The notes under the pieces: generated by a model
What the model was told of the DNA's origin: nothing
What the model saw: the letters and a program-made list of their open reading frames with translations, nothing else
Database searches by the model: none
Part shown: positions 7,506 to 60,276 of the stretch, piece after piece
Position numbering within the stretch: the first letter of the stretch is position 1
How the letters are laid out: each line of letters begins with the position of its first letter
Assembly (NCBI GenBank): GCA_002742935.1
Contig: PDON01000066.1
Location: 6,185 to 70,184, forward strand
DNA: 64,000 bases
Reading direction: 5' to 3'
Origin: Candidatus Cloacimonadota bacterium
GTDB lineage: Bacteria; UBA4055
Position numbers and translations under genes: made by a program

Positions 7506-8555
7506 ATGGATCTGAAAATTTTAATCATAAATGATAGTAAAAACACCAATAATCTTTACTCGTTAATGAAAGAAAATCATTTAATTGTAGATCAAACTCT
7601 CAGTATTAATATATTAGGCTCTGTTAACAAGCTTAATCCGGATATTATAATAATAAACTTTAATAGTTATGAAAAACTTTCTGTAATAAAAGAGTTGAAA
7701 GATATGGGTTTTGACCAAAACTCTATTGTAGTAGTTACTAAGATTGATGAACAGGAAAGTATTGAAAAAATTTACTCTGAAGGTATATCCCTATTTTTAA
7801 GAGAACCATTTAGCATATTTGAGATAAAAGCTATTATTTCAAACATGAAAGTTTTAAAAAGAACAGGAAAACGACTTAAAGATGAAATAACAAAGAGATC
7901 AAAGATAGAGTGGAAATTTAGAAAGTTTGTATCTTTTTCAGTATTTGGAATGTTGCTAATTGATAAAGATCTTAACATTTCCCTCTGGAATAAGGGAGCA
8001 GAAAATATTTTTGGCTATAAAAAGAGTGAAGTAATAGGAAAAAATTTTTTAAAATTTATACCCTTAGGTGAAAATAAAATATTAGACTTTGCCTACCAAA
8101 AAGATCGTTTTTTTGAGATTGAATCATACAACAAAAAAGGTGAAAGAATAAACTTGGAGATCAGCTTTACTATTGAGATATTTGAAGATAATAGTAATAT
8201 TGCAATATTTATTAAAGATATCAGTGAACACAAAAAGTATCTAAAGCTCCAAAAAGAGAGTGAAAGGCAGAGAGAAAAATTAAAAGAACTTGAAGCTTTT
8301 AACGCCACTATAATAACCTTAAATCACAATCTAAAACAACCTATATGCTCAATTGTATCAAATATTCAATTGGCGTTAAACAATAAGAATAGAAACAAGG
8401 GAAACGACAAATTCTTAAAAAGAATAGATTCATCAAGCAAAACAATATGTTCTATAGTGGATAAAATAGGAAATATAAAAAATTTAAAATATATAGATTA
8501 TGCGGGTAGGTACAAAATGATAGATTTAAATGAGGATATTGATGAGCATAATTAG
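7506..8555 (+). CDS. pseudo-receiver / PAS / DHp (HisKA-like) signalling protein without ATPase domain
   Basis: REC-like N-terminus with the acceptor Asp position read as Asn (PDIIIINFNSYEK). PAS-like core (SLWNKGAENIFGYKKSEVIGKNF). His box LNHNLKQPICSI. The ORF ends about 60 aa later with no N/G1/G2 boxes. Confidence 0.6.
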   Translation: MDLKILIINDSKNTNNLYSLMKENHLIVDQTLSINILGSVNKLNPDIIIINFNSYEKLSVIKELKDMGFDQNSIVVVTKIDEQESIEKIYSEGISLFLREPFSIFEIKAIISNMKVLKRTGKRLKDEITKRSKIEWKFRKFVSFSVFGMLLIDKDLNISLWNKGAENIFGYKKSEVIGKNFLKFIPLGENKILDFAYQKDRFFEIESYNKKGERINLEISFTIEIFEDNSNIAIFIKDISEHKKYLKLQKESERQREKLKELEAFNATIITLNHNLKQPICSIVSNIQLALNNKNRNKGNDKFLKRIDSSSKTICSIVDKIGNIKNLKYIDYAGRYKMIDLNEDIDEHN

Positions 8556-9633
8556 ATTAATAAAACTAATATTTAAAAACTATCTTCACCCCCAAAGTAA
8601 TTCTATTTTAATAGTATTCCTTATTGCTTTAATTTTAAATATTGTAACAGGTTCCCTATTCTATTACTTTGAAAGCTCTGTACAAGATATAACATATATT
8701 GATTCTATATGGTGGTCAATGGTTACAATGACTACTGTAGGTTATGGTGACTTTTTCCCAAAGACCATTATAGGAAGATTTTTAATAACCTACCCTACAA
8801 TGGTAATAGGTATTGGTCTCATTGGTTATCTTATTGGAGTTGTGGCTGAAAGTATAATTGATTTTGCAGCAAGAAAGAGGAAAGGTCTTATGGAAATAAC
8901 ATTTAGTGATCATATAATTATTTGTAACTATCCAAGCGAGGAAAAAGTATTAAATCTTATTAAAGAGTTAAAGTTTGTTCCTGAACTTAAAAATAAAAGG
9001 ATAGTACTCATAACAGAAGTAATAGATCAACTTCCGGAATCATTTAAAAATGATAAAATAAGGTTTATAAAGGGAGTCCCCACCGATGAAGTAACTCTTT
9101 TAAAAGCAAATATACTCAATTGTAACGGGGTTATTATACTTTCCGAAAGCAACAACTATATTGCTGACGACAGATCCTACACAATAGGTTCCCTGATTGA
9201 GATAATGGAAAAGAACTTTAAAACTCCTATAAAAACAATTACAGAGATAATAAGGGAAAGAAATAAACCCCTCATAGAAAAAGCTGAAGTTGACGGTATT
9301 GTAAGTACAGAAGGGATTTCAGGACAGCTTATTGTTCAGGAGTTTGTTAATCCGGGAATAAACGGAGTTCTAAAACAACTAATGACAAATAGTATAGGGA
9401 GTCAACTCTATTTGTATGAAACAGATCTTGGTGGATATAAAATTACAGATCTTCAACTAAAAGCAATTAAGTATGATAAAGATATTCAAATAATAGGTGT
9501 TTCAAGAGAGGGGAAAGATATATTAAACCCTAAAAAAGGTTTTATTTTGCAGGAGAAAGATAAACTGATAATTATTGCAGAATCAAGAAAAGATATTGTG
9601 GATCTTGAAAAATTATTTGACACTACCTCTTGA
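8530..9633 (+). CDS. potassium channel with C-terminal RCK/TrkA-like domain
   Basis: Selectivity filter TTVGYGD between two TM helices; Rossmann-like IIICNYPSEEKV... afterwards. Overlaps the upstream ORF; the start could be ATG 8542. Confidence 0.85.
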   Translation: MRILMSIIRLIKLIFKNYLHPQSNSILIVFLIALILNIVTGSLFYYFESSVQDITYIDSIWWSMVTMTTVGYGDFFPKTIIGRFLITYPTMVIGIGLIGYLIGVVAESIIDFAARKRKGLMEITFSDHIIICNYPSEEKVLNLIKELKFVPELKNKRIVLITEVIDQLPESFKNDKIRFIKGVPTDEVTLLKANILNCNGVIILSESNNYIADDRSYTIGSLIEIMEKNFKTPIKTITEIIRERNKPLIEKAEVDGIVSTEGISGQLIVQEFVNPGINGVLKQLMTNSIGSQLYLYETDLGGYKITDLQLKAIKYDKDIQIIGVSREGKDILNPKKGFILQEKDKLIIIAESRKDIVDLEKLFDTTS

Positions 9634-35379: not shown

Positions 35380-35484
35380 ATGACTGGACAAGCTATACTA
35401 TTCTTGGTTATTGGAGGGGTTTTCCTTTGGGGAGGCTTAGCACAGGCTCTAATAAGAGAATTTAAAAATAATGATTATGAATAA
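35380..35484 (+). CDS. MetS-like small subunit of NSS amino-acid importers (34 aa; not in the ORF track)
   Basis: ATG 4 nt after the NSS stop, behind GAGGAGGG. MTGQAILFLVIGGVFLWGGLAQALIREFKNNDYE is a single TM helix with a WGG motif, as I recall for the methionine/alanine importer small subunit. Confidence 0.55.
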   Translation: MTGQAILFLVIGGVFLWGGLAQALIREFKNNDYE

Positions 35485-35487
35485 TAG

Positions 35488-35518
35488 AAATAGCTCTCCG
35501 ATTGGGAGAGCTATTTTT
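35488..35518 (+). terminator. rho-independent terminator
   Basis: AAATAGCTCTCC pairs with GGAGAGCTATTT (12 bp), 5-nt loop, followed by TTTTT. Confidence 0.8.
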
Positions 35519-35566
35519 ATTCAGTGCTTTGATTTAATAAAAAAGTAAATTACTATTCTCTTAAAC

Positions 35567-35602
35567 AATCTCCATAGTTGCAGTATTGCAACTATGGAGA
35601 TT
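35567..35602. promoter_or_regulatory. 16-bp perfect inverted repeat (candidate activator/operator site)
   Basis: AATCTCCATAGTTGCA gtat TGCAACTATGGAGATT. Centre lies about 130 bp upstream of the sigma-54-like element. No T-run follows. Confidence 0.4.
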
Positions 35603-35699: not shown

Positions 35700-35715
35700 T
35701 GGCATTCTAGTTGCA
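35700..35715 (+). promoter_or_regulatory. sigma-54 type -24/-12 promoter element
   Basis: TGGCAT-tctag-TTGCA compared with the consensus TGGCAC-N5-TTGCA; GG and GC are separated by exactly 10 nt. Ends 13 nt before ATG 35729. Confidence 0.45.
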
Positions 35716-35728
35716 ATATATATTAAAC

Positions 35729-36088
35729 ATGAAGAAGATTGTTGCTATATCCATATTCAATCATAGAATTGCCCCGGTTTTTGATGTATCACTTAAAGTA
35801 TTAATTATCGATACAAACTCAGAAGATCAGCTTCCGAAGGAAAAAGAACTACCCAAACAGATAGATGAAAAAATTTTAGCTATAAAAAACTCTGGAGTAG
35901 AGATACTATTATGTGGAGCTATATCAATTCAAGTTTTAGAAAGAATTGAAAGGGCAGGAATAGAGGTTTACCCCTTTGCCAGAGGTTCTATTTGTGAGAT
36001 TCTCTCAAAACTCAAAGAGGGAAAGATTGATAAAATGAGATATACAATGCCAGGGTGTTATAGAAGAGGAAGATGTGTACGAAGATAG
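35729..36088 (+). CDS. NifX/NifB-type (dinitrogenase FeMo-cofactor-binding fold) domain protein
   Basis: MKKIVAISIFNHRIAPVFD...ILLCGAIS...GIEVY pattern of the NifX-like fold; Cys/Arg tail PGCYRRGRCVRR. The track start 35711 is the TTG of the -12 box. Confidence 0.65.
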   Translation: MKKIVAISIFNHRIAPVFDVSLKVLIIDTNSEDQLPKEKELPKQIDEKILAIKNSGVEILLCGAISIQVLERIERAGIEVYPFARGSICEILSKLKEGKIDKMRYTMPGCYRRGRCVRR

Positions 36089-36144
36089 AAATTAAAGTTG
36101 CAAAAATGCGAAAGAATAGATAAAGTAATCTTATATACTATGAG

Positions 36145-37341
36145 GTGAATCAGTTGAATCAAGAGATGATTAAGGAAAATGAAGCAATCGCTAGAACAAA
36201 TGAGAAGATTGCACACAAGATTGTAGTAATGAGTGGAAAAGGCGGAGTAGGAAAATCTACCATATCCACAAATATTGCTTACGGATTAGCACTAAACGGA
36301 TACAGGGTTGGTATTTTAGATGCTGATGTTCATGGTCCTAACATAGCATTAATGTGTGGTGTTGAAGGGAAAAAAGCTGAAAACTTAGAACCTATAGAGG
36401 TACAAACAAACCTAAAAGTTGTATCTCTTGGAATGTTTTTAGAAAAATCAGGAGATCCTATAGTATGGAGAGGTCCTGCAAAAACAAAAATTATTAAGCA
36501 ACTAATTGCTAATGTAAACTGGGGTGAGTTGGATTTTATGGTGGTTGATCTTCCTCCGGGAACCGGTGATGAGGGTTTAACTATTGCACAAAATCTTGGA
36601 AATATTGATGGAGCTATTATTGTTACAACACCTCAAGATGTTGCACTTTTAGATTCAGGAAGATCTGTCAAATTCGCAGAAATGCTAAAGATGCCTGTTT
36701 TAGGAATAGTAGAAAATATGAGTGGTTTCTCTTGCCCTCACTGTGGAGAGAAGATAGATATTTTTGATAATGAAAAGGTTAGTACATACAGAAACAGTAG
36801 TATAGAACTACTAGGTAAAATACCTTTGACTCCCGAGATTGTTAAATCCGGAGATACAGGAAAACCTTTCATATACTTCAATAACGGAGAGAAAGCTGCA
36901 GAACAACTACACAATATTGTTAACAAAGTTCTTGATAAAGTTGAAACTAAAAATATGGAGAATGAGATGGAAAAAGAGAGTATTAAAATTGCACTACCTA
37001 CAAATGACAGAGCTAATGTTGAGGAGCATTTTGGACACTGTAAAGAGTTTGCTTTTTACACTGTTTCAGAAGGAAATGTGCAAGCAATAGATTATTTAAC
37101 AGCACCACCTCACGAACCTGGAGTTTTACCAAAGTTTCTTGGAGAAAAAGGTGCTAACGTAATCATTACAGGCGGAATGGGTGCGAGAGCTATTGCTCTC
37201 TTCAAAGATCAAAATATTGAGGTTATCTTAGGAGCAACAGGAGCTCTCAAAGATAATCTAAATGAATATCTAAAAGGTGATCTTGAATCAAAAGGATCTG
37301 CTTGTTCTCATAACCATGAAGATCATGAATGTTCACACTAA
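36145..37341 (+). CDS. Mrp/NBP35 (ApbC-like) Fe-S cluster carrier ATPase fused to a C-terminal NifX-type domain
   Basis: Deviant Walker A VVMSGKGGVGKST and a CPHCGEKIDIF motif. The C-terminal IKIALPTNDRANVEEHFGHCKEFAFY...IITGGMGARA is NifX-like. Tail CSHNHEDHECSH. The start is uncertain (GTG 36145, TTG 36154 or ATG 36166). Confidence 0.85.
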   Translation: MNQLNQEMIKENEAIARTNEKIAHKIVVMSGKGGVGKSTISTNIAYGLALNGYRVGILDADVHGPNIALMCGVEGKKAENLEPIEVQTNLKVVSLGMFLEKSGDPIVWRGPAKTKIIKQLIANVNWGELDFMVVDLPPGTGDEGLTIAQNLGNIDGAIIVTTPQDVALLDSGRSVKFAEMLKMPVLGIVENMSGFSCPHCGEKIDIFDNEKVSTYRNSSIELLGKIPLTPEIVKSGDTGKPFIYFNNGEKAAEQLHNIVNKVLDKVETKNMENEMEKESIKIALPTNDRANVEEHFGHCKEFAFYTVSEGNVQAIDYLTAPPHEPGVLPKFLGEKGANVIITGGMGARAIALFKDQNIEVILGATGALKDNLNEYLKGDLESKGSACSHNHEDHECSH

Positions 37342-37351
37342 TTAAATAAAA

Positions 37352-37382
37352 GAGAGATCCTTGCTTTTAACAGGGATCTCTC
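37352..37382 (+). other. 12-bp intra-cluster hairpin without a T-run
   Basis: GAGAGATCCTTG pairs with CAGGGATCTCTC (one G-U), 7-nt loop; 10 nt after the stop of the Mrp fusion gene. Confidence 0.5.
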
Positions 37383-37471
37383 ATATTATAAATAAGATAG
37401 CATTATTACAACAAATAGAAAAACCATTTGAAAGTTGTGCTTTTGTCTAATATTTTAAAGGAGAGGCAGTT

Positions 37472-37834
37472 ATGAATATAGCAATATGTACCACAGGAGA
37501 AAGTTTAGATTCCAACCTTGATGAAAGATTTGGAAGATGTGAAAATTTCCTAATATACAATAGTGAAACTGAAAAGTTTACAGTAGTAAAAAATAGAGCA
37601 AAAGATGAAGCTTCGGGAGCAGGTAGAAATGCTGTAAAACAACTTTCTGAAAATGGAGTAGATCTAGTTTTGGCTCCACATATAGGTCCTAAGGGTTTAA
37701 CAGCTCTTGAAGCTATGGAGATAGAAGCTTACGATTTTGGTGATTCAAAAAGTGTGGAAGATGCTATAAATAATTTTAAGGCTGGAATCTTAGAAAAAGT
37801 TACAAATAGAAAAGGTGGGCTGAGAAAAGTATAG
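37472..37834 (+). CDS. NifX/NifB-type domain protein
   Basis: MNIAICTTGESLDSNLDERFGRCENFLIYN...VDLVLAPHIGPKG, the classic stand-alone NifX-like pattern. RBS AGGAGAGG. Confidence 0.8.
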   Translation: MNIAICTTGESLDSNLDERFGRCENFLIYNSETEKFTVVKNRAKDEASGAGRNAVKQLSENGVDLVLAPHIGPKGLTALEAMEIEAYDFGDSKSVEDAINNFKAGILEKVTNRKGGLRKV

Positions 37835-37873
37835 CAATAAACCTATATTCAACCATTTTAGGAGATTCTATTT

Positions 37874-38728
37874 ATGAAAATAACTGTATTAAGTGGAAAA
37901 GGAGGAACAGGAAAAACAACTGTTTCTACGAATCTATTTTATAACAGTGAAAACAGTTCTCTCTTTGATACAGATGTAGAGGAGCCTAACGCTCATCTAT
38001 TCTTTAATCTAAGTAACAGTAGATCTATTGAGGTAGAAAAATCATATCCAAAAATAGATAAAGAGAAATGTACTCTATGTGGAAAGTGTAGCGATTTTTG
38101 TAACTATAATGCACTCTTAACAACAAAAAGGGGAGTTTTAGTTTTTGAAGAAAGTTGTCATGATTGTGGAGGGTGTAAACTTGTTTGTTCATTCAATGCA
38201 ATAGATTATGAAAAAAGATCTATTGGTAAAATACACAGCTGTTCCCATAAAAATAGAAATATCCACTATGGTAAATTAAATCTTGGAGAACTTTCGGGAG
38301 TTCCAATAATAGATAGTGAAAATAAAATGGTTGATAAAGAGGAGTTGTCCATATTTGATGCCCCTCCCGGAACATCTTGTGCAACCTTTGCAGCTTTAGA
38401 AGATAGTGATTATGCTATTATTGTTACAGAACCTACCCCTTTTGGAGTAAGTGATATGAAGATGGTGGTAGAGATGTTACAAAGTATGAAGATACCCTTT
38501 GGTGTTGTTGTAAATAAGAGCGGATTGGGAAACAATGAAATCTATGAGTATTGTAACAAATCAGATATAGAGATCTTAACAGAGATACCATACTCAAAAG
38601 ATATTGCACAATCCTATGCTATAGGAGCTATCTTTAGTGAAAAGCTACCCAGATACAGAGATCTATTTAAAACTCTTCTAAAAAATGTTGTTGAAAAGAT
38701 TCAGAATGAGGAGATTGATAATGATTAG
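37874..38728 (+). CDS. MinD/ParA-superfamily P-loop ATPase with inserted 2x[4Fe-4S] ferredoxin domain
   Basis: ITVLSGKGGTGKTT, then CTLCGKCSDFCNYNAL and CHDCGGCKLVCSFNAI, then the ATPase core resumes (IFDAPPGTSC). Confidence 0.8.
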   Translation: MKITVLSGKGGTGKTTVSTNLFYNSENSSLFDTDVEEPNAHLFFNLSNSRSIEVEKSYPKIDKEKCTLCGKCSDFCNYNALLTTKRGVLVFEESCHDCGGCKLVCSFNAIDYEKRSIGKIHSCSHKNRNIHYGKLNLGELSGVPIIDSENKMVDKEELSIFDAPPGTSCATFAALEDSDYAIIVTEPTPFGVSDMKMVVEMLQSMKIPFGVVVNKSGLGNNEIYEYCNKSDIEILTEIPYSKDIAQSYAIGAIFSEKLPRYRDLFKTLLKNVVEKIQNEEIDND

Positions 38729-39581
38729 AAACGAGATTGTTGTTATCTCCGGAAAAGGGGGAACAGGAAAAACTACTATTGTGTCATCAATAATACCATT
38801 TTTTAAAAATCTTGTTATAGGAGATTGTGATGTTGATGCTCCTGATCTTCATATTATGTTAAACCCTAAACAGAAGAGCAAAGAGGAGTTTATGGGATTA
38901 AAAAAAGCTTCACTTGATGAATCAAAATGTATTAAGTGTGGTAAATGTTATAATCACTGTAAATTTGGAGCAATAACAGAAGATATACTATTTAAGCACA
39001 ATAGATGTGAAGGTTGTGGGGTATGTGAATACCTATGTCCCGTTTGTGCAATTGAGATGAAAGAGGCAAAAACCGGATCAATTTACCATTCCCAAACAGA
39101 TTATGGGGATATGGTTCACGCAAGATTAATTCCTGGAGAGGAAGCTTCGGGAAAGCTTGTTGCAAAGGTTAGAAGAGAAGCAATGAATATTGCAGAAAAA
39201 AAAGGATTTAAAAATATTATTATAGATGGATCTCCCGGTGTTGCCTGTAATGTTATATCATCAATCACCGGTGCGTCAAAGGTAGTAATTGTTGTTGAGC
39301 CATCACTATCGGGACTCCACGATCTTAAAAGGGTTTACCAATTAACACAAAAGTTTAAACTGAAAACAATTGTTGTTATAAATAAATTTGATATATCTCC
39401 AAAAATGTCAAGAGAGATAGAAAACTATTGTGAGAAACTTAACATTACCATTGGTTTAAAGATACCTTTTTCAAGAGATATAGTTAACTCTATAGTAATG
39501 AAAAAGATCCCTTCTATAGAGTGTAACCGGATATTTGAAAACATAGGTTTCAATAATTTTATTCAATTATTAAAGGGATAG
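38721..39581 (+). CDS. MinD/ParA-superfamily P-loop ATPase with inserted 2x[4Fe-4S] ferredoxin domain (paralogue)
   Basis: ATG 38721 overlaps the previous stop (ATGATTAG), behind GAGGAG. VVISGKGGTGKTT, CIKCGKCYNHCKFGAI, CEGCGVCEYLCPVCAI. Confidence 0.8.
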   Translation: MIRNEIVVISGKGGTGKTTIVSSIIPFFKNLVIGDCDVDAPDLHIMLNPKQKSKEEFMGLKKASLDESKCIKCGKCYNHCKFGAITEDILFKHNRCEGCGVCEYLCPVCAIEMKEAKTGSIYHSQTDYGDMVHARLIPGEEASGKLVAKVRREAMNIAEKKGFKNIIIDGSPGVACNVISSITGASKVVIVVEPSLSGLHDLKRVYQLTQKFKLKTIVVINKFDISPKMSREIENYCEKLNITIGLKIPFSRDIVNSIVMKKIPSIECNRIFENIGFNNFIQLLKG

Positions 39582-39886
39582 AAACAAACTAAATATTTAT
39601 GATCTTTTAAAAGTAGATTATATTTAACAAAATGATAAATTTTAGATGTATGGAAACTTTAGCCAACCAGATAAACAGTTTATATAAACTACAAAAAAAT
39701 TATCTTCTAAATTCACACTCTTAAATTTTGATTTTACCCCCAACAAGATATATATTTATAGGTTGTAACATTAATAGTTATAATTTTCAACAAAGATACA
39801 TTATCTATTGAACTTTAACTGTTAAAAAATAAGAAATATAAAAGATCTAATACTTGGTTGATTTGATCTCTTTTTTAGGATACTCT

Positions 39887-42478
39887 ATGTTAAAAAATAT
39901 TATATTTATTCTGGTAACATTCTCTTTACTATTCAGTAGCATAAATATCTACTCTAATCCCGAAAATATAGAAGGATATAAAAAGTTTGGATTGTATCCA
40001 GAAAACCAATATCAAAAAAAATATCTATTGAACAAAAAATGGGAAATAAAGATTGGAGAAAAAGGGAAGTGGATGCCTGTTCACATACCTTCTAGCTTTG
40101 ATAATGGGAACAAAAACGAAACCGTTTACTACAGATCCTCTTTTTCCCTTCCAAACCTAAACAAAAACAAACATTATAAGCTACTTTTTTACGGAATAAA
40201 TAATAGTGCAAATATAAAGATAAACAATAACTTTGTAGAAAGTCATAACTCAGGATTTACAAGTTTTGAGATAGATCTTAACAGAAATATTTTAAACAAT
40301 AACGGATCTAATGAAATTTTAATAGAGGTTAACAATCAACTAACTGCTAAAAGCACTATACCTCTTTTAATGAATGTAAACGGGTTTAAAAACTATGGCG
40401 GTATATACAGAGAGGTGTATCTGGTTGAAACAGGTATAGTTTCGGTATCAGATTCAGATATTAACTATAAATTCACAGATTCATACAAAAAAGCTAAAAT
40501 TGAAATTACCGCTTCCATAAAAGATTATAACTATATAAACATATCTGAACTGGATAGTAGTGAGTATAAAACAGATATATTTTCATTTGTTGAAATAGTT
40601 GATAAATTTGACAAGAGTGTTTATAAATCCGGAGAATCACTGTTTGAGCTTTTGAGACACGGAGAAAAAAATATAAAATTCAAAATTACCCTTAAAAAGC
40701 CAAATCTTTGGTCTCCCGATAACCCTTACTTGTACACGGTAAAAATTTATACGGGTACAATTGAAAAGGGGAAGAGAGATACAACTTCAATCTATCAATA
40801 TAATTTTGGATTAAAATCTCTGGTTACGAGTGGGGGAAAACTATTTCTAAACGGGAAACAACTATTTCTCCAAGGTGTTAGCAGGCATAATGAAAGATTG
40901 GATATGGGGAACTCACTAACATATGAAACTGTTAGATATGAGGTAGAAAAAATTAAAAATATGGGAAGTAATATAATCCATTCAAACTATGTTCCTCCTC
41001 ACCCCTACTATCTGGATCTCTGTGATAAGTATGGTATATTTATTTTACAGGGAATTCCAATAATTGGTATGCCTTCAGATTTTAGTGAAAATAAGCTATT
41101 GAAAGAGCTTGCCCTATCAAATCTTTCAGAGATGATAAATAGAGATAAACATCACCCATCAATTTTTGCTTGGGGATTGGGAAAGCAGTACAACACATTC
41201 TCACTTAAATCTTTGGATTTTATTATGGATCTAAAAGATTTAGCAAAATCACTTACTCCAAATATTTTTACCTATATAGAAACAAAATTAACACCACTAA
41301 TTGAGTACTATAGAGTTACGGATCTAACAATAATAAAACTTCCGGATTTAGGTACAGATGAAACAATAAAAAAGATATCAAATATAGCTAAAGATAATAT
41401 TATTTTGGTTAACAATATTGGAAAGGAGATAAAACCCGGAAACGAAAAAGGTTTTTTAGATCCTCACAGTGAGCCGGCACAAGCCAAACATATAATAAAC
41501 AATATAAAGATGATAAAAAAAGAGGAGAGTATAAATGGTTTTATTGTAGACTCTTTTACGGATAGAATTAGTGATGTACCTCTTCTTATTAAATATAATA
41601 CGGGTAATATTTATGGAATAAACGATGGTTTAGTTGATTTTAAGGAGAAAAATAGAATCTCCTATATTGCTGCAGAATCAATGTTTAAAAACAGAAAAGC
41701 ACCAACACTAAACCAAGGTGAGTATAAACATAAAAAAACAAACTTCTTCTTTATTCTTGGTATAACAGTAACACTTACCTTACTATTTTTGATAAAGAGA
41801 GAACATTATCTAAAAAATAATATTATAAGAACCTTTAAAAACAGCTCTGCTTTCTATATAGATATAAGAGACAGAAGAATAACACAAGATTGGCAATCAT
41901 TTGTAATAGCACTATTTTCTGCCATAGGTATATCATCAACCTTGTCCTCTATGTTTTTTACATACAGATTTTCAAGTAAATTTGATTACTTATTGACTCT
42001 AATATTTAGAAATAATGTAATAAAAGAGTTTGTTATTGAACTCATATGGCGACCTTATCTCTTTGTGATTGTAGGGGTAGTAGCATATTTTATACTTATC
42101 TTCTTAGTTTCAATATATATTAAGTTTTCAGGATATATATTTAAAGCAAAATACTCTATTAGTAATCTGTTTATCTTAATTAGTTGGAGTGGTGCTGTAT
42201 ATCTTATTTTCTTACCTTTTTCAGCTCTTTTTATTAGAATTATAACTCCTGTAACAATTATAATGATAATAATTACCTTTATGATTCTAGCCGTACTTCA
42301 ATGGATTAGAATTATACAGGTAATGGTAGTAATATATAAAACAAGTTTAAGAAAAGTTGTTTTAATAAACTTAGGGTCTGCCATTGTTTTAGCTTTCCTT
42401 TTTATTTACTATCTAAACTATAACTATTCAGCATACAGCTATTTAAAATATTTCTTTAATGTTATTCTAAAAAACTAA
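39887..42478 (+). CDS. GH2-like (sugar-binding + Ig + TIM-barrel) domain fused to a C-terminal polytopic membrane domain
   Basis: Signal/anchor MLKNIIFILVTFSLLFSS. GH2-like YYRSSFSLP..., LFLQGVSRHNE, NRDKHHPSIFAWGLGKQ. The last ~250 aa contain about 7 hydrophobic helices. Confidence 0.7.
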   Translation: MLKNIIFILVTFSLLFSSINIYSNPENIEGYKKFGLYPENQYQKKYLLNKKWEIKIGEKGKWMPVHIPSSFDNGNKNETVYYRSSFSLPNLNKNKHYKLLFYGINNSANIKINNNFVESHNSGFTSFEIDLNRNILNNNGSNEILIEVNNQLTAKSTIPLLMNVNGFKNYGGIYREVYLVETGIVSVSDSDINYKFTDSYKKAKIEITASIKDYNYINISELDSSEYKTDIFSFVEIVDKFDKSVYKSGESLFELLRHGEKNIKFKITLKKPNLWSPDNPYLYTVKIYTGTIEKGKRDTTSIYQYNFGLKSLVTSGGKLFLNGKQLFLQGVSRHNERLDMGNSLTYETVRYEVEKIKNMGSNIIHSNYVPPHPYYLDLCDKYGIFILQGIPIIGMPSDFSENKLLKELALSNLSEMINRDKHHPSIFAWGLGKQYNTFSLKSLDFIMDLKDLAKSLTPNIFTYIETKLTPLIEYYRVTDLTIIKLPDLGTDETIKKISNIAKDNIILVNNIGKEIKPGNEKGFLDPHSEPAQAKHIINNIKMIKKEESINGFIVDSFTDRISDVPLLIKYNTGNIYGINDGLVDFKEKNRISYIAAESMFKNRKAPTLNQGEYKHKKTNFFFILGITVTLTLLFLIKREHYLKNNIIRTFKNSSAFYIDIRDRRITQDWQSFVIALFSAIGISSTLSSMFFTYRFSSKFDYLLTLIFRNNVIKEFVIELIWRPYLFVIVGVVAYFILIFLVSIYIKFSGYIFKAKYSISNLFILISWSGAVYLIFLPFSALFIRIITPVTIIMIIITFMILAVLQWIRIIQVMVVIYKTSLRKVVLINLGSAIVLAFLFIYYLNYNYSAYSYLKYFFNVILKN

Positions 42479-44504: not shown

Positions 44505-45515
44505 CTACAATTGGTAAGCAATATTAAACATGTTTATACTACCTAATCTACCATAACTTTCCCATGAATAGTCAAATCTAACATTCATAAATTTGAAACC
44601 AACACCTAAAGATGTACCTGAAAGATTAAAACCATCACCATCATAGTCTACAGGAGTACCGTCTGCATCATCATCAAATTTAACATAGTTTGTCTCATCA
44701 AAAAGCCAGTTTTCTTGATCATCAATCTTTCTACCAACTCTTACAAAGAACATATCCTCAAATGAGTACTCGCAACCAAGAGTTAAATACTCGGCATTAT
44801 CTGAAGGGTGAGCAGCTTCAACAGCAACATCAATCTTATTAATACCATCATTAAAAGGTGTAAAATTGATACCAAAGATAAACATCATAGGAAGGTCAGC
44901 ACCCTCGTTAAGATATTTAACCTCGCCACCAAAGTTTCTCATTGACATACCGAAAACTAAAGATTTCCACTTAGTATCATAGAAAGTACCCATATCTACA
45001 GCAAAAGTAGACGCACTCTCATCTGCCAAATTTTCGTGGATAAATTTAAGAGTACCACCTACATAAAATTTAGTTGTAAGCATCTGTGCATAAGAGAGAC
45101 CTACAACCATATCACTGGCAGTAAAGGTTCTTCCTGTTCCGGTTGGGTTTGAAGGAGTAGTTTCATCCATATCTCCAACATTCAAGTAACCAAACTGAAC
45201 ACCCATTGCCGCATTAAATTGTTTAAGCGGATATGTAGCTCCTGCCCATGTGTAGTTGATATCGTCAATGTACATTGTATGGTTTACAATATAATCACCT
45301 CCGTCAATCTTAATGATACTTGCAGGATTGTAAAAAAGAGATGCTGCATCATCACCAAGTCCAATGTATGAACCACCTAATGCATTTGCTCTTGCACTAA
45401 CATCCAATTTTAAGAATGTCATCGCTGCTGTACCGGTTTTAGCCTGAGCGAAGATCATTCCAGGAACTAAAAGGGCAATTAAAAGTATAAAACTTTTAAA
45501 ATTCTTTATCATCAT
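44505..45515 (-). CDS. PorV/PorQ-family outer-membrane beta-barrel protein
   Basis: Start taken at MMIKNFKSF (45515; GAGGT lies 4 nt upstream) rather than 45632. GTAAMTFLKLDVSARANALGGSYIGLGDDAASLFYNPASI matches the PorV-family N-terminal signature as I recall it. Confidence 0.65.
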   Translation of the reverse strand: MMIKNFKSFILLIALLVPGMIFAQAKTGTAAMTFLKLDVSARANALGGSYIGLGDDAASLFYNPASIIKIDGGDYIVNHTMYIDDINYTWAGATYPLKQFNAAMGVQFGYLNVGDMDETTPSNPTGTGRTFTASDMVVGLSYAQMLTTKFYVGGTLKFIHENLADESASTFAVDMGTFYDTKWKSLVFGMSMRNFGGEVKYLNEGADLPMMFIFGINFTPFNDGINKIDVAVEAAHPSDNAEYLTLGCEYSFEDMFFVRVGRKIDDQENWLFDETNYVKFDDDADGTPVDYDGDGFNLSGTSLGVGFKFMNVRFDYSWESYGRLGSINMFNIAYQL

Positions 45516-45704
45516 ACTACCTCGTTCATTTATTTCCATTTTTACCTTTCCTTTACATGGATTTCTTATAATAACAATTATTATACCTATCCACAATAAA
45601 AAAAAACAGAAAAAAGTTAATCTTAGCCTCAATTAAGATCTGCTGAAAAAGTTATAAACACCAGAACAGTTACGGCAAAGGAAATCTAAACTATAAGAGC
45701 TTAC

Positions 45705-55958: not shown

Positions 55959-57290
55959 TTATTTTATAAGTAACATTTTATTAGTAACAATACCTTTGGA
56001 AGTTTTAAGAGTATAGTAATAAGCTCCTGAGTTAAGGTGTGAAGCGTCAAATTCTACTTTGTGAAGACCTTCTTTTTGAAACTCATTAACAAGTTTTTCT
56101 ACTAATTGACCCTTTGAGTTGTAGATAGATAAAGATATATTACCACTTTCAGGTATTAGATAGTTAATAGTGGTTGTAGGATTAAAAGGGTTTGGGTAGT
56201 TTTCCATTAAAACAGATGTAGAAGGAAGAGTAGTTTCCTCTGTAATATCTACAACATCCTCCGGAACAAGAGATGGATATCCATTATTAATATTTTCATC
56301 GAAATACCATATGTTTTCAAAATCCCAACCAACATAAGTAGCTTCCTCTTTCATCTCGGCAGTAGTCTTACCTTCCCCCGCTCCTGATTCAGTTTGTCCT
56401 GAAGTTTCAACATCCCAATAACAAGAAGTGAAATTTCCATAAGTAGTAATTCCAACAAAACCACCAACGGCACCAACACCATTAACATTTCCTACAGAAT
56501 AGTTGTTTTCAAAAGTACCACTTTCAATATTTCCGGCAAAACCTCCAACAAAGTTATAACCAATAACATTTCCGGTAGCATAAGAGTTAGTAACCAAAGC
56601 TTCCGGTCCACCACTGAAACCAACAAAACCACCTACTGTATTATGCTCATTTTCGAGAGTAACATTTCCGGTAGCACAAGATTTTGATATTTCACAATCT
56701 TGTAGCCAACCAACAAAACCACCAATACCAAGAGATCCATAAACAGAAGCTGAAGTAGAGCAGTTTTCGACTAAACCATTCTCACAATCACCAATGAATC
56801 CGGAAACATACACAGCTCCTGTAACTATACCACTGGCAGAACAATTTAACACCTCTCCATCTTGAAGCCATCCGGCTAAACTACCAACAGCATCTCTACC
56901 AATAATATTAACATTCTCTAATGTTAGGTTGGAAATCTTTCCCCCATCAATATAGCCAAACAAACCAACCTTATCTCCGTTTACCATATCTATTTTAAGA
57001 TTAGAGATTTTTTTATGGTTTCCCATGTAAGATCCTGAAAAAGCAGTTCCTCCGTTATTAGGAACTGTTCCAATAGGAGTAATCCCTGCTGTTTGAGATT
57101 CAATGTCAATATCCTCTATCTGAATAAAATATTTATTCCAATCATTTTTAGTTGACATCAACTCTTTCAAATCAGAAACATTAGCAATCTGATAAGGATC
57201 AGATTCCAAACCCGCTCCACCACTATAAGCATTCAAACTAACTACTGTCAGAAGAACCATTAAACTGTTTAGTAACTTAAACATAATCAC
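55959..57290 (-). CDS. GLUG-repeat surface protein with T9SS C-terminal sorting domain
   Basis: Signal peptide; repeated VGGFVG/GGFAG (GLUG-like) units. C-terminal NYPNPFNPTTTINYLIPESGNISLSIYNSKGQLV...YYYTLKT is typical of type A T9SS sorting domains. Confidence 0.8.
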   Translation of the reverse strand: MIMFKLLNSLMVLLTVVSLNAYSGGAGLESDPYQIANVSDLKELMSTKNDWNKYFIQIEDIDIESQTAGITPIGTVPNNGGTAFSGSYMGNHKKISNLKIDMVNGDKVGLFGYIDGGKISNLTLENVNIIGRDAVGSLAGWLQDGEVLNCSASGIVTGAVYVSGFIGDCENGLVENCSTSASVYGSLGIGGFVGWLQDCEISKSCATGNVTLENEHNTVGGFVGFSGGPEALVTNSYATGNVIGYNFVGGFAGNIESGTFENNYSVGNVNGVGAVGGFVGITTYGNFTSCYWDVETSGQTESGAGEGKTTAEMKEEATYVGWDFENIWYFDENINNGYPSLVPEDVVDITEETTLPSTSVLMENYPNPFNPTTTINYLIPESGNISLSIYNSKGQLVEKLVNEFQKEGLHKVEFDASHLNSGAYYYTLKTSKGIVTNKMLLIK

Positions 57291-59772: not shown

Positions 59773-60276
59773 CTAGAAAGCCCAGAAACTATTATCATTC
59801 CAAACCTTGTTCTTTAGTTCCTCACTAATATCTTCAAGATCTTTTAAGTGATCACCTTCCCAATTTGCAAGATAGGTATAGAACTCCTTCTCTTTCTCAT
59901 CTTCACATTCAGCAGCTCTTTTTGAGTATAGCTCTATAGCCTTCTTCTCAAAATTTATAGCAGCGTCTATTGCAGCAGATTCAAAGCTTGCAGCTTCAAT
60001 TTTACCAATCATATCTTCATCAAGAACATGATCTGCAATCTCTGTTGTTTTAGCTCTTTCCAAAACAGATGAATCAAACTCACCGGTTTTACTTAAACTG
60101 TTGTAGAGATCAGTCAAAAATTTTAAGTGGACAACCTCTTCCTCTGCCATTTCATTAAAGAACTCTTTAACCTTTGGATCTTTTACTTGACATGCAATTG
60201 TTCTAAAAAACTCCATGCCTCTCTTCTCTAATAGAATCCCCTGTTTAAGGGTTATTAAAGTCTTACTCTCTTCCAT
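59773..60276 (-). CDS. ferritin-like / rubrerythrin-type diiron four-helix-bundle protein
   Basis: Two E...ExxH pairs (EKRGMEFF...EEEVVHL and FEKKAIELY...WEGDHL); 167 aa. Confidence 0.7.
   Translation of the reverse strand: MEESKTLITLKQGILLEKRGMEFFRTIACQVKDPKVKEFFNEMAEEEVVHLKFLTDLYNSLSKTGEFDSSVLERAKTTEIADHVLDEDMIGKIEAASFESAAIDAAINFEKKAIELYSKRAAECEDEKEKEFYTYLANWEGDHLKDLEDISEELKNKVWNDNSFWAF

Follow-up and report, generated by a model that had tools for sequence, protein, structure and literature searches.

A 64-kb window from contig PDON01000066.1 of a Candidatus Cloacimonadota bacterium (the window being the whole stretch of DNA analysed) carries five open reading frames (ORFs) within positions 35729-39581, all on the + strand, with intergenic gaps of 57, 130, and 39 nt and then an 8-nt overlap. 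An earlier note on this DNA had placed five co-directional genes at these positions, and the ORFs were found there. The same note offered them as its best candidate for an uncharacterised system, to whose five-part combination no role had been assigned. However, the composition is that of a described assembly, the five-protein orange protein (ORP) complex, and one of the products passes the curated family model for its MrpORP subunit. At a probability of about 85%, the five genes are an orp locus, homologous to the genes DVU2103-2109 for the ORP complex of Desulfovibrio vulgaris but gathered in a single operon.

That complex was reportedly described by Fievet and colleagues in 2011. It consists of Orp3, Orp4, Orp5, Orp8, and Orp9, the last also termed MrpORP (Pardoux 2019, PMC6345978). 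Orp3 and Orp4 are MinD-like paralogs with two [4Fe-4S] ferredoxin motifs each; Orp5 and Orp8 have as homologs, respectively, a small [2Fe-2S] protein and the orange protein, which binds a non-covalent S2MoS2CuS2MoS2 cluster; and MrpORP joins an Mrp/NBP35 ATPase to a Di-Nase (NifX-like) domain, binds Fe-S clusters, and in Desulfovibrio hands them to Orp3 and Orp4 (PMC6345978). The genes form two divergent sigma-54-dependent operons, orp5-orp4-orp3 and orp7-orp8-orp9, which flank orpR. The orpR product is a PAS-[4Fe-4S] redox-sensing enhancer-binding protein (EBP) (PMC8359166, PMC3897727).

Gene 2 is the MrpORP homolog. Pfam recognizes both of its parts, ParA/NUBPL (PF10609) at 307 bits and Nitro_FeMo-Co at 74 bits, in agreement with the earlier description of an Mrp/NBP35 ATPase fused to a NifX-type domain with a His/Cys tail. 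The NCBIfam model NF041136 ("iron-sulfur cluster carrier protein MrpORP") matches residues 20-379 of 398 with 456.6 bits, against a curated equivalog cutoff of 450; the ApbC equivalog, by contrast, scores 200 bits, below its cutoff of 348 bits. The translation contains GKGGVGKST, CPHC, and a C-terminal CSHNHEDHECSH. When gene 2 is aligned with its homologs (n = 21), several elements are invariant or nearly so: GKGGVGK(S); the pair C197-x2-C200 of CPHC; HFGHC; and C387 and H389 (C387-S-H389). A deviant Walker A and a CxxC motif for a bridging cluster are common to gene 2 and the Mrp/NBP35/ApbC carriers (Nbp35-Cfd1, ApbC), which, unlike gene 2, lack a Di-Nase domain fused at the C-terminus and bearing HFGHC and C-x-H motifs.

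Homologs of this two-domain architecture are plentiful, and in several phyla NCBI names them MrpORP. The closest, at 55-65% identity, include members of the Fusobacteriota (Ilyobacter, Propionigenium, Hypnocyclicus). At about 45% identity they extend through many anaerobic phyla, several of them already called MrpORP. The true start of gene 2 is probably the TTG at 36154 rather than the GTG at 36145: this TTG is preceded by GAGGTG and yields 395 residues, the length of the database representative P0001. Fusion of the two domains is evolutionarily labile, since Mrp and Di-Nase are encoded by separate, adjacent, same-frame genes in seven related loci (L008, L012, L016, L018, L022, L044, and L048). 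Selenocysteine recoding was considered at these Mrp/Di-Nase stops and rejected; the stops are TAA, TAG, or TGA, each followed by a new ATG, and the genes are ordinary split genes.

Downstream of gene 2, the 130-nt spacer before gene 3 contains a stem-loop with an RNA-fold z of -2.8 and no U-tract. The only Rfam match to a known RNA or riboswitch around the operon falls on this hairpin, far under the gathering score. In L086, the closest relative, the corresponding spacer holds two small genes, which encode a 73-residue Cys-rich protein and a 71-residue DUF5320 protein.

Gene 3, the stand-alone NifX-type domain of the earlier description, receives 83 bits from Nitro_FeMo-Co (PF02579). Its structural matches (phmmer against the PDB) are TM1290 (1rdu, 1.6e-14), the D. 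gigas orange protein (2wfb, 2e-11), and MTH1175 (2e-9). Alignment is full-length to 2WFB and 1RDU; TM1290 (1RDU) and MTH1175 (1EO1) are COG1433 relatives of the orange protein. Like the orange protein, the gene 3 product is a single domain of about 120 residues with no Cys ligands. The D. gigas protein matches this one alone of the three Di-Nase domains in the window. The identity is only 34% (BLASTP), and Mo-Cu-S binding by gene 3 is putative.

Genes 4 and 5 encode paralogs (30% identity) whose overlap, ATGATTAG, was verified at 8 nt. Pfam assigns each a CbiA/ParA domain together with several Fer4 families. Each contains two CxxCxxCxxxC motifs, eight Cys in all, downstream of the Walker A motif. 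The overlapping MinD/ParA ATPases with ferredoxin motifs that the earlier note had read here were seen correctly; across the five proteins, the profile hidden Markov models (HMMs) of Pfam support every NifX-type and ferredoxin-insert call. An alignment of 77 MinD-ferredoxin proteins finds the eight ferredoxin Cys 98-100% conserved. It also reveals a ninth Cys, 97% conserved, in a switch II-like D-x-x-P-G-x-x-C: C169 of gene 4 (38378-38380) and C188 of gene 5 (39282-39284). NifH-type ATPases have dimer-bridging ligands, and by that analogy this residue might be a metal or cluster ligand at the dimer interface. Its recognition is a small addition of this analysis to the description of the family.

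The Nitro_FeMo-Co match of gene 1 (PF02579, 32.6 bits; cutoff 26.3) is the weakest of the domain calls. An AlphaFold (AF2) model built from a subfamily alignment reaches a mean predicted local distance difference test (pLDDT) of 82 and a predicted template modelling score (pTM) of 0.75. All 13 PDB matches to this model at E <= 1e-3 (Foldseek) are structures of the Di-Nase/NifX family, among them PH0822, MJ0327, TM1816, the D. gigas orange protein, TM1290, NifX, NafY, and MTH1175. The protein ends in ...MPGCYRRGRCVRR, and its Cys/Arg tail (residues 106-119) is predicted to be disordered. Pfam, the model, and the translation thus agree with the NifX-type domain and PGCYRRGRC tail of the earlier reading. 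The subfamily alignment shows an invariant C62 in 'LLCGAIS', an invariant C110 in a nearly invariant 'MPGC', and an Arg/Gly-rich tail; gene 1 has two further Cys, one of them C116.

A profile search finds at least 1954 members of this subfamily at E <= 1e-5, all of them under generic names only, and no Desulfovibrio entry appears among the best 120 matches. Recognition of this large, generically annotated subfamily is another small addition of the present work. Genes of this type occur in at least 12 of the sampled loci considered below, where typically they come first after a sigma-54 promoter. Gene 1 itself encodes a small Cys-containing Di-Nase protein in that position, which it shares with orp5. 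Position and Cys content make gene 1 a candidate equivalent of Orp5 (Dde_3197), but this is only a guess.

Do these genes travel together? Pfam annotation of neighbourhoods found these parts grouped in Propionigenium, in a metagenome-assembled genome from the Myxococcota, and in a 5.7-Mb genome. A wider scan, limited to one genome per species, yielded at least 80 loci, a sample rather than a census, which were annotated with HMMs made from the window proteins and from accessory genes seen earlier. Of the 83 sampled loci, 38 combine an Mrp gene with one or more free Di-Nase genes and two or more MinD-ferredoxin genes. Where at least 6 kb of flank is available on both sides, the MinD-ferredoxin pair accompanies seven of nine fused Mrp-Di-Nase genes and six of seven Mrp genes followed directly by a Di-Nase gene; for both types together, the pair is found in 13/16 and a free Di-Nase gene in 16/16. 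One locus (L074, Victivallaceae) has a gene order identical to that of the window. The five-gene clustering is not chance, for the parts recur together across many unrelated genomes.

The sampled hosts are diverse. Among the bacteria they include Myxococcota, Syntrophia, Desulfobacterota, Verrucomicrobiota, Planctomycetota, Cloacimonadota, Armatimonadota, Synergistota, and Fusobacteriota. Among the archaea they include ANME-1, Methanobacterium, Bathyarchaeota, Methanolinea, Methanocellaceae, and Methanolobus. Such a range fits the published description of the ORP system as anaerobe-specific, with a suggested archaeal origin (PMC8359166).

Clustering of the other ORFs in the 38 full-module loci identified recurrent neighbours: metallo-beta-lactamase (MBL)-fold hydrolase (13/38); radical S-adenosylmethionine (SAM) protein (10/38); DUF134 (8/38); NifU_N/IscU (6/38); ABC ATPase (4/38); and DUF364 'heavy-metal chelation' protein (3/38). 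Genes for DUF5320 and ARMT1-like proteins also recur near related modules. No catalytic client is among the recurrent families of these 38 loci. None of the recurrent accessory genes is present in the window, which therefore represents a minimal core. The earlier note had asked whether the genes always sit beside a characterised pathway. No separate client accompanies them, although the genes themselves would constitute a named system, ORP. Three related loci encode Di-Nase-DUF5320 fusions with long, Gly/Arg-rich (GMGR)n linkers and a coiled-coil-like C-terminus (L019 10880-11497, L022 4607-5257, and L059 9060-9767; one of the three is from an ANME-1 archaeon). These linkers recall the cationic tail of the archaeal protein IssA.

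Upstream of gene 1 lies TGGCATtctagTTGCA, the sole strong -24/-12 element in the window. By chance, 0.65 matches are expected per window, and at least one occurs in 45 of 100 shuffles; the weight of the element comes from its position and its conservation in related loci. In about 14 of these, an equally strong sigma-54 site precedes the module's first Di-Nase gene (31 such sites in 1.29 Mb). Further upstream is a perfect inverted repeat, AATCTCCATAGTTGCA-gtat-TGCAACTATGGAGATT, present as a single copy in the window; its 16-nt arms are 100% complementary, and its centre lies 115 nt from the -24 element. Other orp-like loci have palindromes with TGCA or TGCG cores 80-140 nt upstream of their sigma-54 promoters, some with an adjacent OrpR-type EBP gene. 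One example is AGTATTGCA-ttt-TGCAATACT in L004, which adjoins an OrpR-type gene. L086, the nearest relative, has kept a gene of the gene 1 type, the same spacing of the promoter, and an inverted repeat related to this one. The Desulfovibrio OrpR site is likewise palindromic, at -88 and -131. The interval between palindrome and promoter, where Desulfovibrio has a site for integration host factor (IHF), contains no match to WATCARNNNNTTR.

The promoter is unusually close to the gene. Between the end of its -12 element and the ATG of gene 1 are 13 nt (35700-35731), with no Shine-Dalgarno sequence, a spacing that predicts a leader of about 3 nt and hence an essentially leaderless mRNA from a sigma-54 promoter. 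Five loci from different phyla (the window, L086, L028, L055, and L058) have 12-14 nt between the -12 element and the ATG, corresponding to leaders of 2-4 nt; other loci have leaders of 24-85 nt.

Features of the orp locus and its upstream region, with short-leader sites of related loci (window coordinates unless a locus is named)
Feature	Position	Strand	Description
Gene 1	35729..36088	+	2-Cys Di-Nase (NifX-like) protein, 'LLCGAIS ... MPGC + Arg-rich tail' subfamily; possible Orp5 counterpart
Gene 2	36145..37341	+	MrpORP (Orp9 homolog): Mrp/NBP35 P-loop ATPase with fused Di-Nase domain
Gene 3	37472..37834	+	Single-domain Di-Nase protein of orange protein (ORP/Orp8) / MTH1175 / TM1290 type
Gene 4	37874..38728	+	MinD/CbiA-type P-loop ATPase with inserted 2x[4Fe-4S] ferredoxin domain, Orp3/Orp4 type
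Gene 5	38721..39581	+	Paralog of gene 4, Orp3/Orp4 type, with 8-nt overlap with gene 4
Intrinsic terminator	35483..35521	+	Belongs to upstream SNF-transporter unit; 17-nt arms, 94% complementary, then T-run; upstream boundary of orp unit
Perfect inverted repeat	35567..35602	.	Putative upstream activating sequence, for a sigma-54 activator of the OrpR type
Sigma-54 (-24/-12) promoter TGGCATtctagTTGCA	35700..35715	+	10/11 specified positions matched
12-bp stem-loop in gene 2-gene 3 spacer	37352..37382	+	Possible processing or attenuation element
Short-leader sites	L086 2323-2353; L028 6448-6478; L055 8134-8165; L058 6785-6817		Sigma-54 site with 12-14 nt from -12 element to ATG

Several observations speak for the assignment to orp: gene 2 passes the MrpORP cutoff; the composition equals that of the published complex; the genes are syntenic elsewhere; the orange protein matches gene 3; sigma-54 promoters head related modules; EBPs beside such modules have the hallmarks of OrpR; and L086 keeps the gene 1 type, promoter spacing, and a related repeat. 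The window encodes the same kinds of protein as the ORP complex of D. vulgaris Hildenborough (DVU2103-DVU2109), with gene 1 as the candidate Orp5, and in both a sigma-54 promoter and an upstream palindrome head the unit, the host is anaerobic, and no client enzyme is adjacent. D. vulgaris has two divergent operons, whereas the window has one co-directional operon in the different order gene 1-Mrp-ORP-MinD-MinD; this operon has no orpR within it or close by, and lacks an orp7-like gene. The palindrome core is TTGCA-N4-TGCAA in the window and GGGCGYRTTTTGCGCCC in D. vulgaris. The window host belongs to a low-GC (31%) uncultured lineage with genes of the type IX secretion system (T9SS), whereas D. 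vulgaris is a deltaproteobacterium.

Several observations weigh against the assignment. The MrpORP score of gene 2 only just exceeds the cutoff, and the protein lacks both the N-terminal Cys motif and the first Cys of CxHFGHCE that are published for the Desulfovibrio protein. Gene 3 is nearer to TM1290 than to the D. gigas orange protein. Genes 4 and 5 are assigned to the Orp3/Orp4 type (DVU2103/DVU2104) by architecture, and the Orp5 (DVU2105) label of gene 1 is a guess. The promoter match by itself is not statistically significant in 64 kb. No OrpR-type activator or other EBP was found in the window or in the rest of the 71.7-kb contig by six-frame motif scans (GAFTGA, then GAFTDA/GAYTDA), an EBP HMM, or whole-contig Pfam annotation, and the contig has no rpoN; the argument for sigma-54 control therefore comes from DNA motifs only. 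Dedicated sigma-54 control, which the earlier note had thought possible, gains from the conserved promoter and palindrome and loses from the missing activator. Finally, the biochemical picture for these five proteins is carried over from Desulfovibrio.

If the orp model is right, the activator would be unlinked in this genome. A PAS protein at 7506-8555 was considered for this role and rejected: it is not an EBP, and has neither an AAA+ domain nor the OrpR Cys triad. (This PAS-domain protein, of 349 residues, lies within 7506-9633 and overlaps the start of a K+-channel-like gene, Ion_trans_2 / RCK.) The hallmarks of OrpR are the triad C-x8-C-x3-C and an unusual GAFTDA motif (PMC4641369, PMC8359166). 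The regulator was said to seem restricted to delta-Proteobacteria (PMC8359166). Among the sampled loci, however, every EBP that adjoins a module has the triad, and 11 of 14 have the GAFTDA variant. OrpR-type activators with the PAS triad, mostly with GAFTDA, stand beside orp modules in L014, L015, L017, L020, L028, and L074, from Verrucomicrobiota, UBP1, Eisenbacteria, Planctomycetia, and Victivallaceae. Contrary to the earlier impression, the range of such activators next to orp modules extends far beyond the deltaproteobacteria.

The immediate neighbours of the five-gene unit encode an SNF-family transporter, a MatE exporter, a GH2 glycosidase, and a NUDIX hydrolase. Pfam annotation found no nitrogenase, hydrogenase, or other obvious client in the window, as the earlier note had said, and found none in the rest of the contig either. 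Four nucleotides past the SNF-family transporter gene, and before the terminator, a hydrophobic 34-codon ORF, MTGQAILFLVIGGVFLWGGLAQALIREFKNNDYE, occupies 35380-35484; its product may serve the transporter as a small membrane subunit. The GH2 protein (39854-42478) has a long C-terminal region that resembles multiple transmembrane segments, an architecture unusual for GH2. Elsewhere in the window are genes for PorV (44505-45632), a GLUG-repeat protein with a Por_Secre_tail, and hence T9SS-sorted (55959-57290), and rubrerythrin (59773-60276). PorV and the GLUG-repeat protein suggest an FCB-superphylum-like host, and the rubrerythrin gene fits an anaerobic one. At 90% identity, every protein tested forms a cluster of its own.

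What the complex does is a separate question, on which other explanations of the locus turn. One is storage or buffering of the kind attributed to Pyrococcus IssA: Di-Nase proteins would nucleate or hold anionic metal-sulfide polymers or clusters, cationic tails would assist, and the ATPases would load and unload them. IssA has a Di-Nase domain, and its clade includes MTH1175 (PMC5524996), which gene 3 matches. Gene 1 has the layout of the thioferrate storage protein IssA of P. furiosus, a globular Di-Nase domain and then a cationic, predicted disordered tail, and its Arg-rich tail is conserved. That tail, however, has only about 12 residues and contains Cys, whereas that of IssA has about 70 residues of Gly/aromatic/cationic character; gene 1 has the conserved C62/C110 pair plus C116, whereas IssA has a single Cys. 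Gene 3 is tailless. The Di-Nase-DUF5320 fusions with (GMGR)n tails are found in related loci, but the window has no DUF5320 gene. The recurrent neighbours (IscU/NifU_N, DUF364, MBL-fold, radical SAM) are not catalytic clients. Cationic tails and accessory genes lend storage some support; as an account of the five genes it is unlikely, and the two readings, storage and ORP, overlap without being mutually exclusive.

The original hypothesis for Desulfovibrio ORP was different: a MinD/ParA-type device for positioning or cell division, whose metal clusters would do no more than sense redox state. Genes 4 and 5 do fall within the MinD/ParA superfamily. What would point specifically to positioning is confined to Desulfovibrio phenotypes, namely the morphological defects of the orpR mutant and the location of MrpORP at the cell pole (PMC6345978, PMC8359166). 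The MinD equivalog TIGR01968 gives genes 4 and 5 only 28 and 41 bits against a cutoff of 213, and TIGR01969 gives 42-49 bits against 202. MinC, MinE, and Par partners are absent from the annotated neighbours in the window and the related loci; the accessory genes there are related to metal clusters; and the system also occurs in archaea, whose division machinery differs. A positioning device is unlikely. Maturation of a FeMo-co-like cofactor, for a nitrogenase or nitrogenase-like enzyme encoded elsewhere, would account for the fold common to NifX, NafY, and the NifB C-terminal domain, and for ATPases distantly related to NifH/SIMIBI. It is effectively excluded by model scores and gene context: nifX (TIGR02663) scores 17-25 bits against a cutoff of 112, and nifB (TIGR01290) 17-26 bits against 344; nifHDKEN and nitrogenase-like genes are absent from the window, the contig, and the 38 full-module loci. 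Moreover, the Desulfovibrio work on ORP shows no nitrogenase link.

The orp assignment, together with experiments on the Desulfovibrio proteins, suggests how the system might operate. At very low redox potential, an unlinked OrpR-type activator would bind the upstream palindrome, and the operon would be transcribed from the sigma-54 promoter. MrpORP (gene 2) would dimerise, with a bridging [4Fe-4S] cluster on CPHC and a second cluster that its Di-Nase domain holds, and would supply genes 4 and 5, the MinD-ferredoxin ATPases that probably pair as a heterodimer, with Fe-S clusters. The small Di-Nase proteins would bind inorganic metal-sulfide species, gene 3 as the orange-protein type and gene 1 as the 2-Cys type with a cationic tail. 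The five proteins would assemble into one complex, expressed only under these strongly reducing conditions. Cluster binding and transfer, complex formation, and redox-gated expression would all follow the Desulfovibrio precedent. The earlier note had guessed at an ATP-driven machine for assembly or delivery of Fe-S or heterometal clusters, which agrees with that biochemistry (PMC6345978, PMC8359166, PMC3897727). Its mechanistic guess thus appears to be largely right, whereas its claim of novelty is unsupported.

A bolder proposal goes further, and must be regarded as a long shot. The five-gene operon would be a minimal ORP core in which gene 1 is a distinct cluster-binding subunit. The system would store or shuttle inorganic Fe-S or thiometallate species, driven by ATP and gated by redox state, in anaerobic bacteria and archaea generally, and would not be a division device; and its mRNA would arise, leaderless, from an unusual sigma-54 promoter.

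Few multi-protein systems have been described as both conserved in anaerobes and confined to them, and the ORP complex is one. Its metalloprotein biochemistry is documented, but it has no known physiological role; the proposed outputs are cell division or positioning on the one hand, and cluster storage or trafficking on the other, and no functional paper later than 2021 was found. A single-operon version in a distant lineage helps to define the core: two MinD-ferredoxin proteins, MrpORP, an orange-protein-type Di-Nase protein, and a 2-Cys Di-Nase protein. Moreover, the comparative set, with OrpR-type activators outside the deltaproteobacteria and with IscU, radical SAM, MBL-fold, DUF134, DUF5320, and ARMT1-like neighbours, points to cluster handling rather than to the service of one enzyme.

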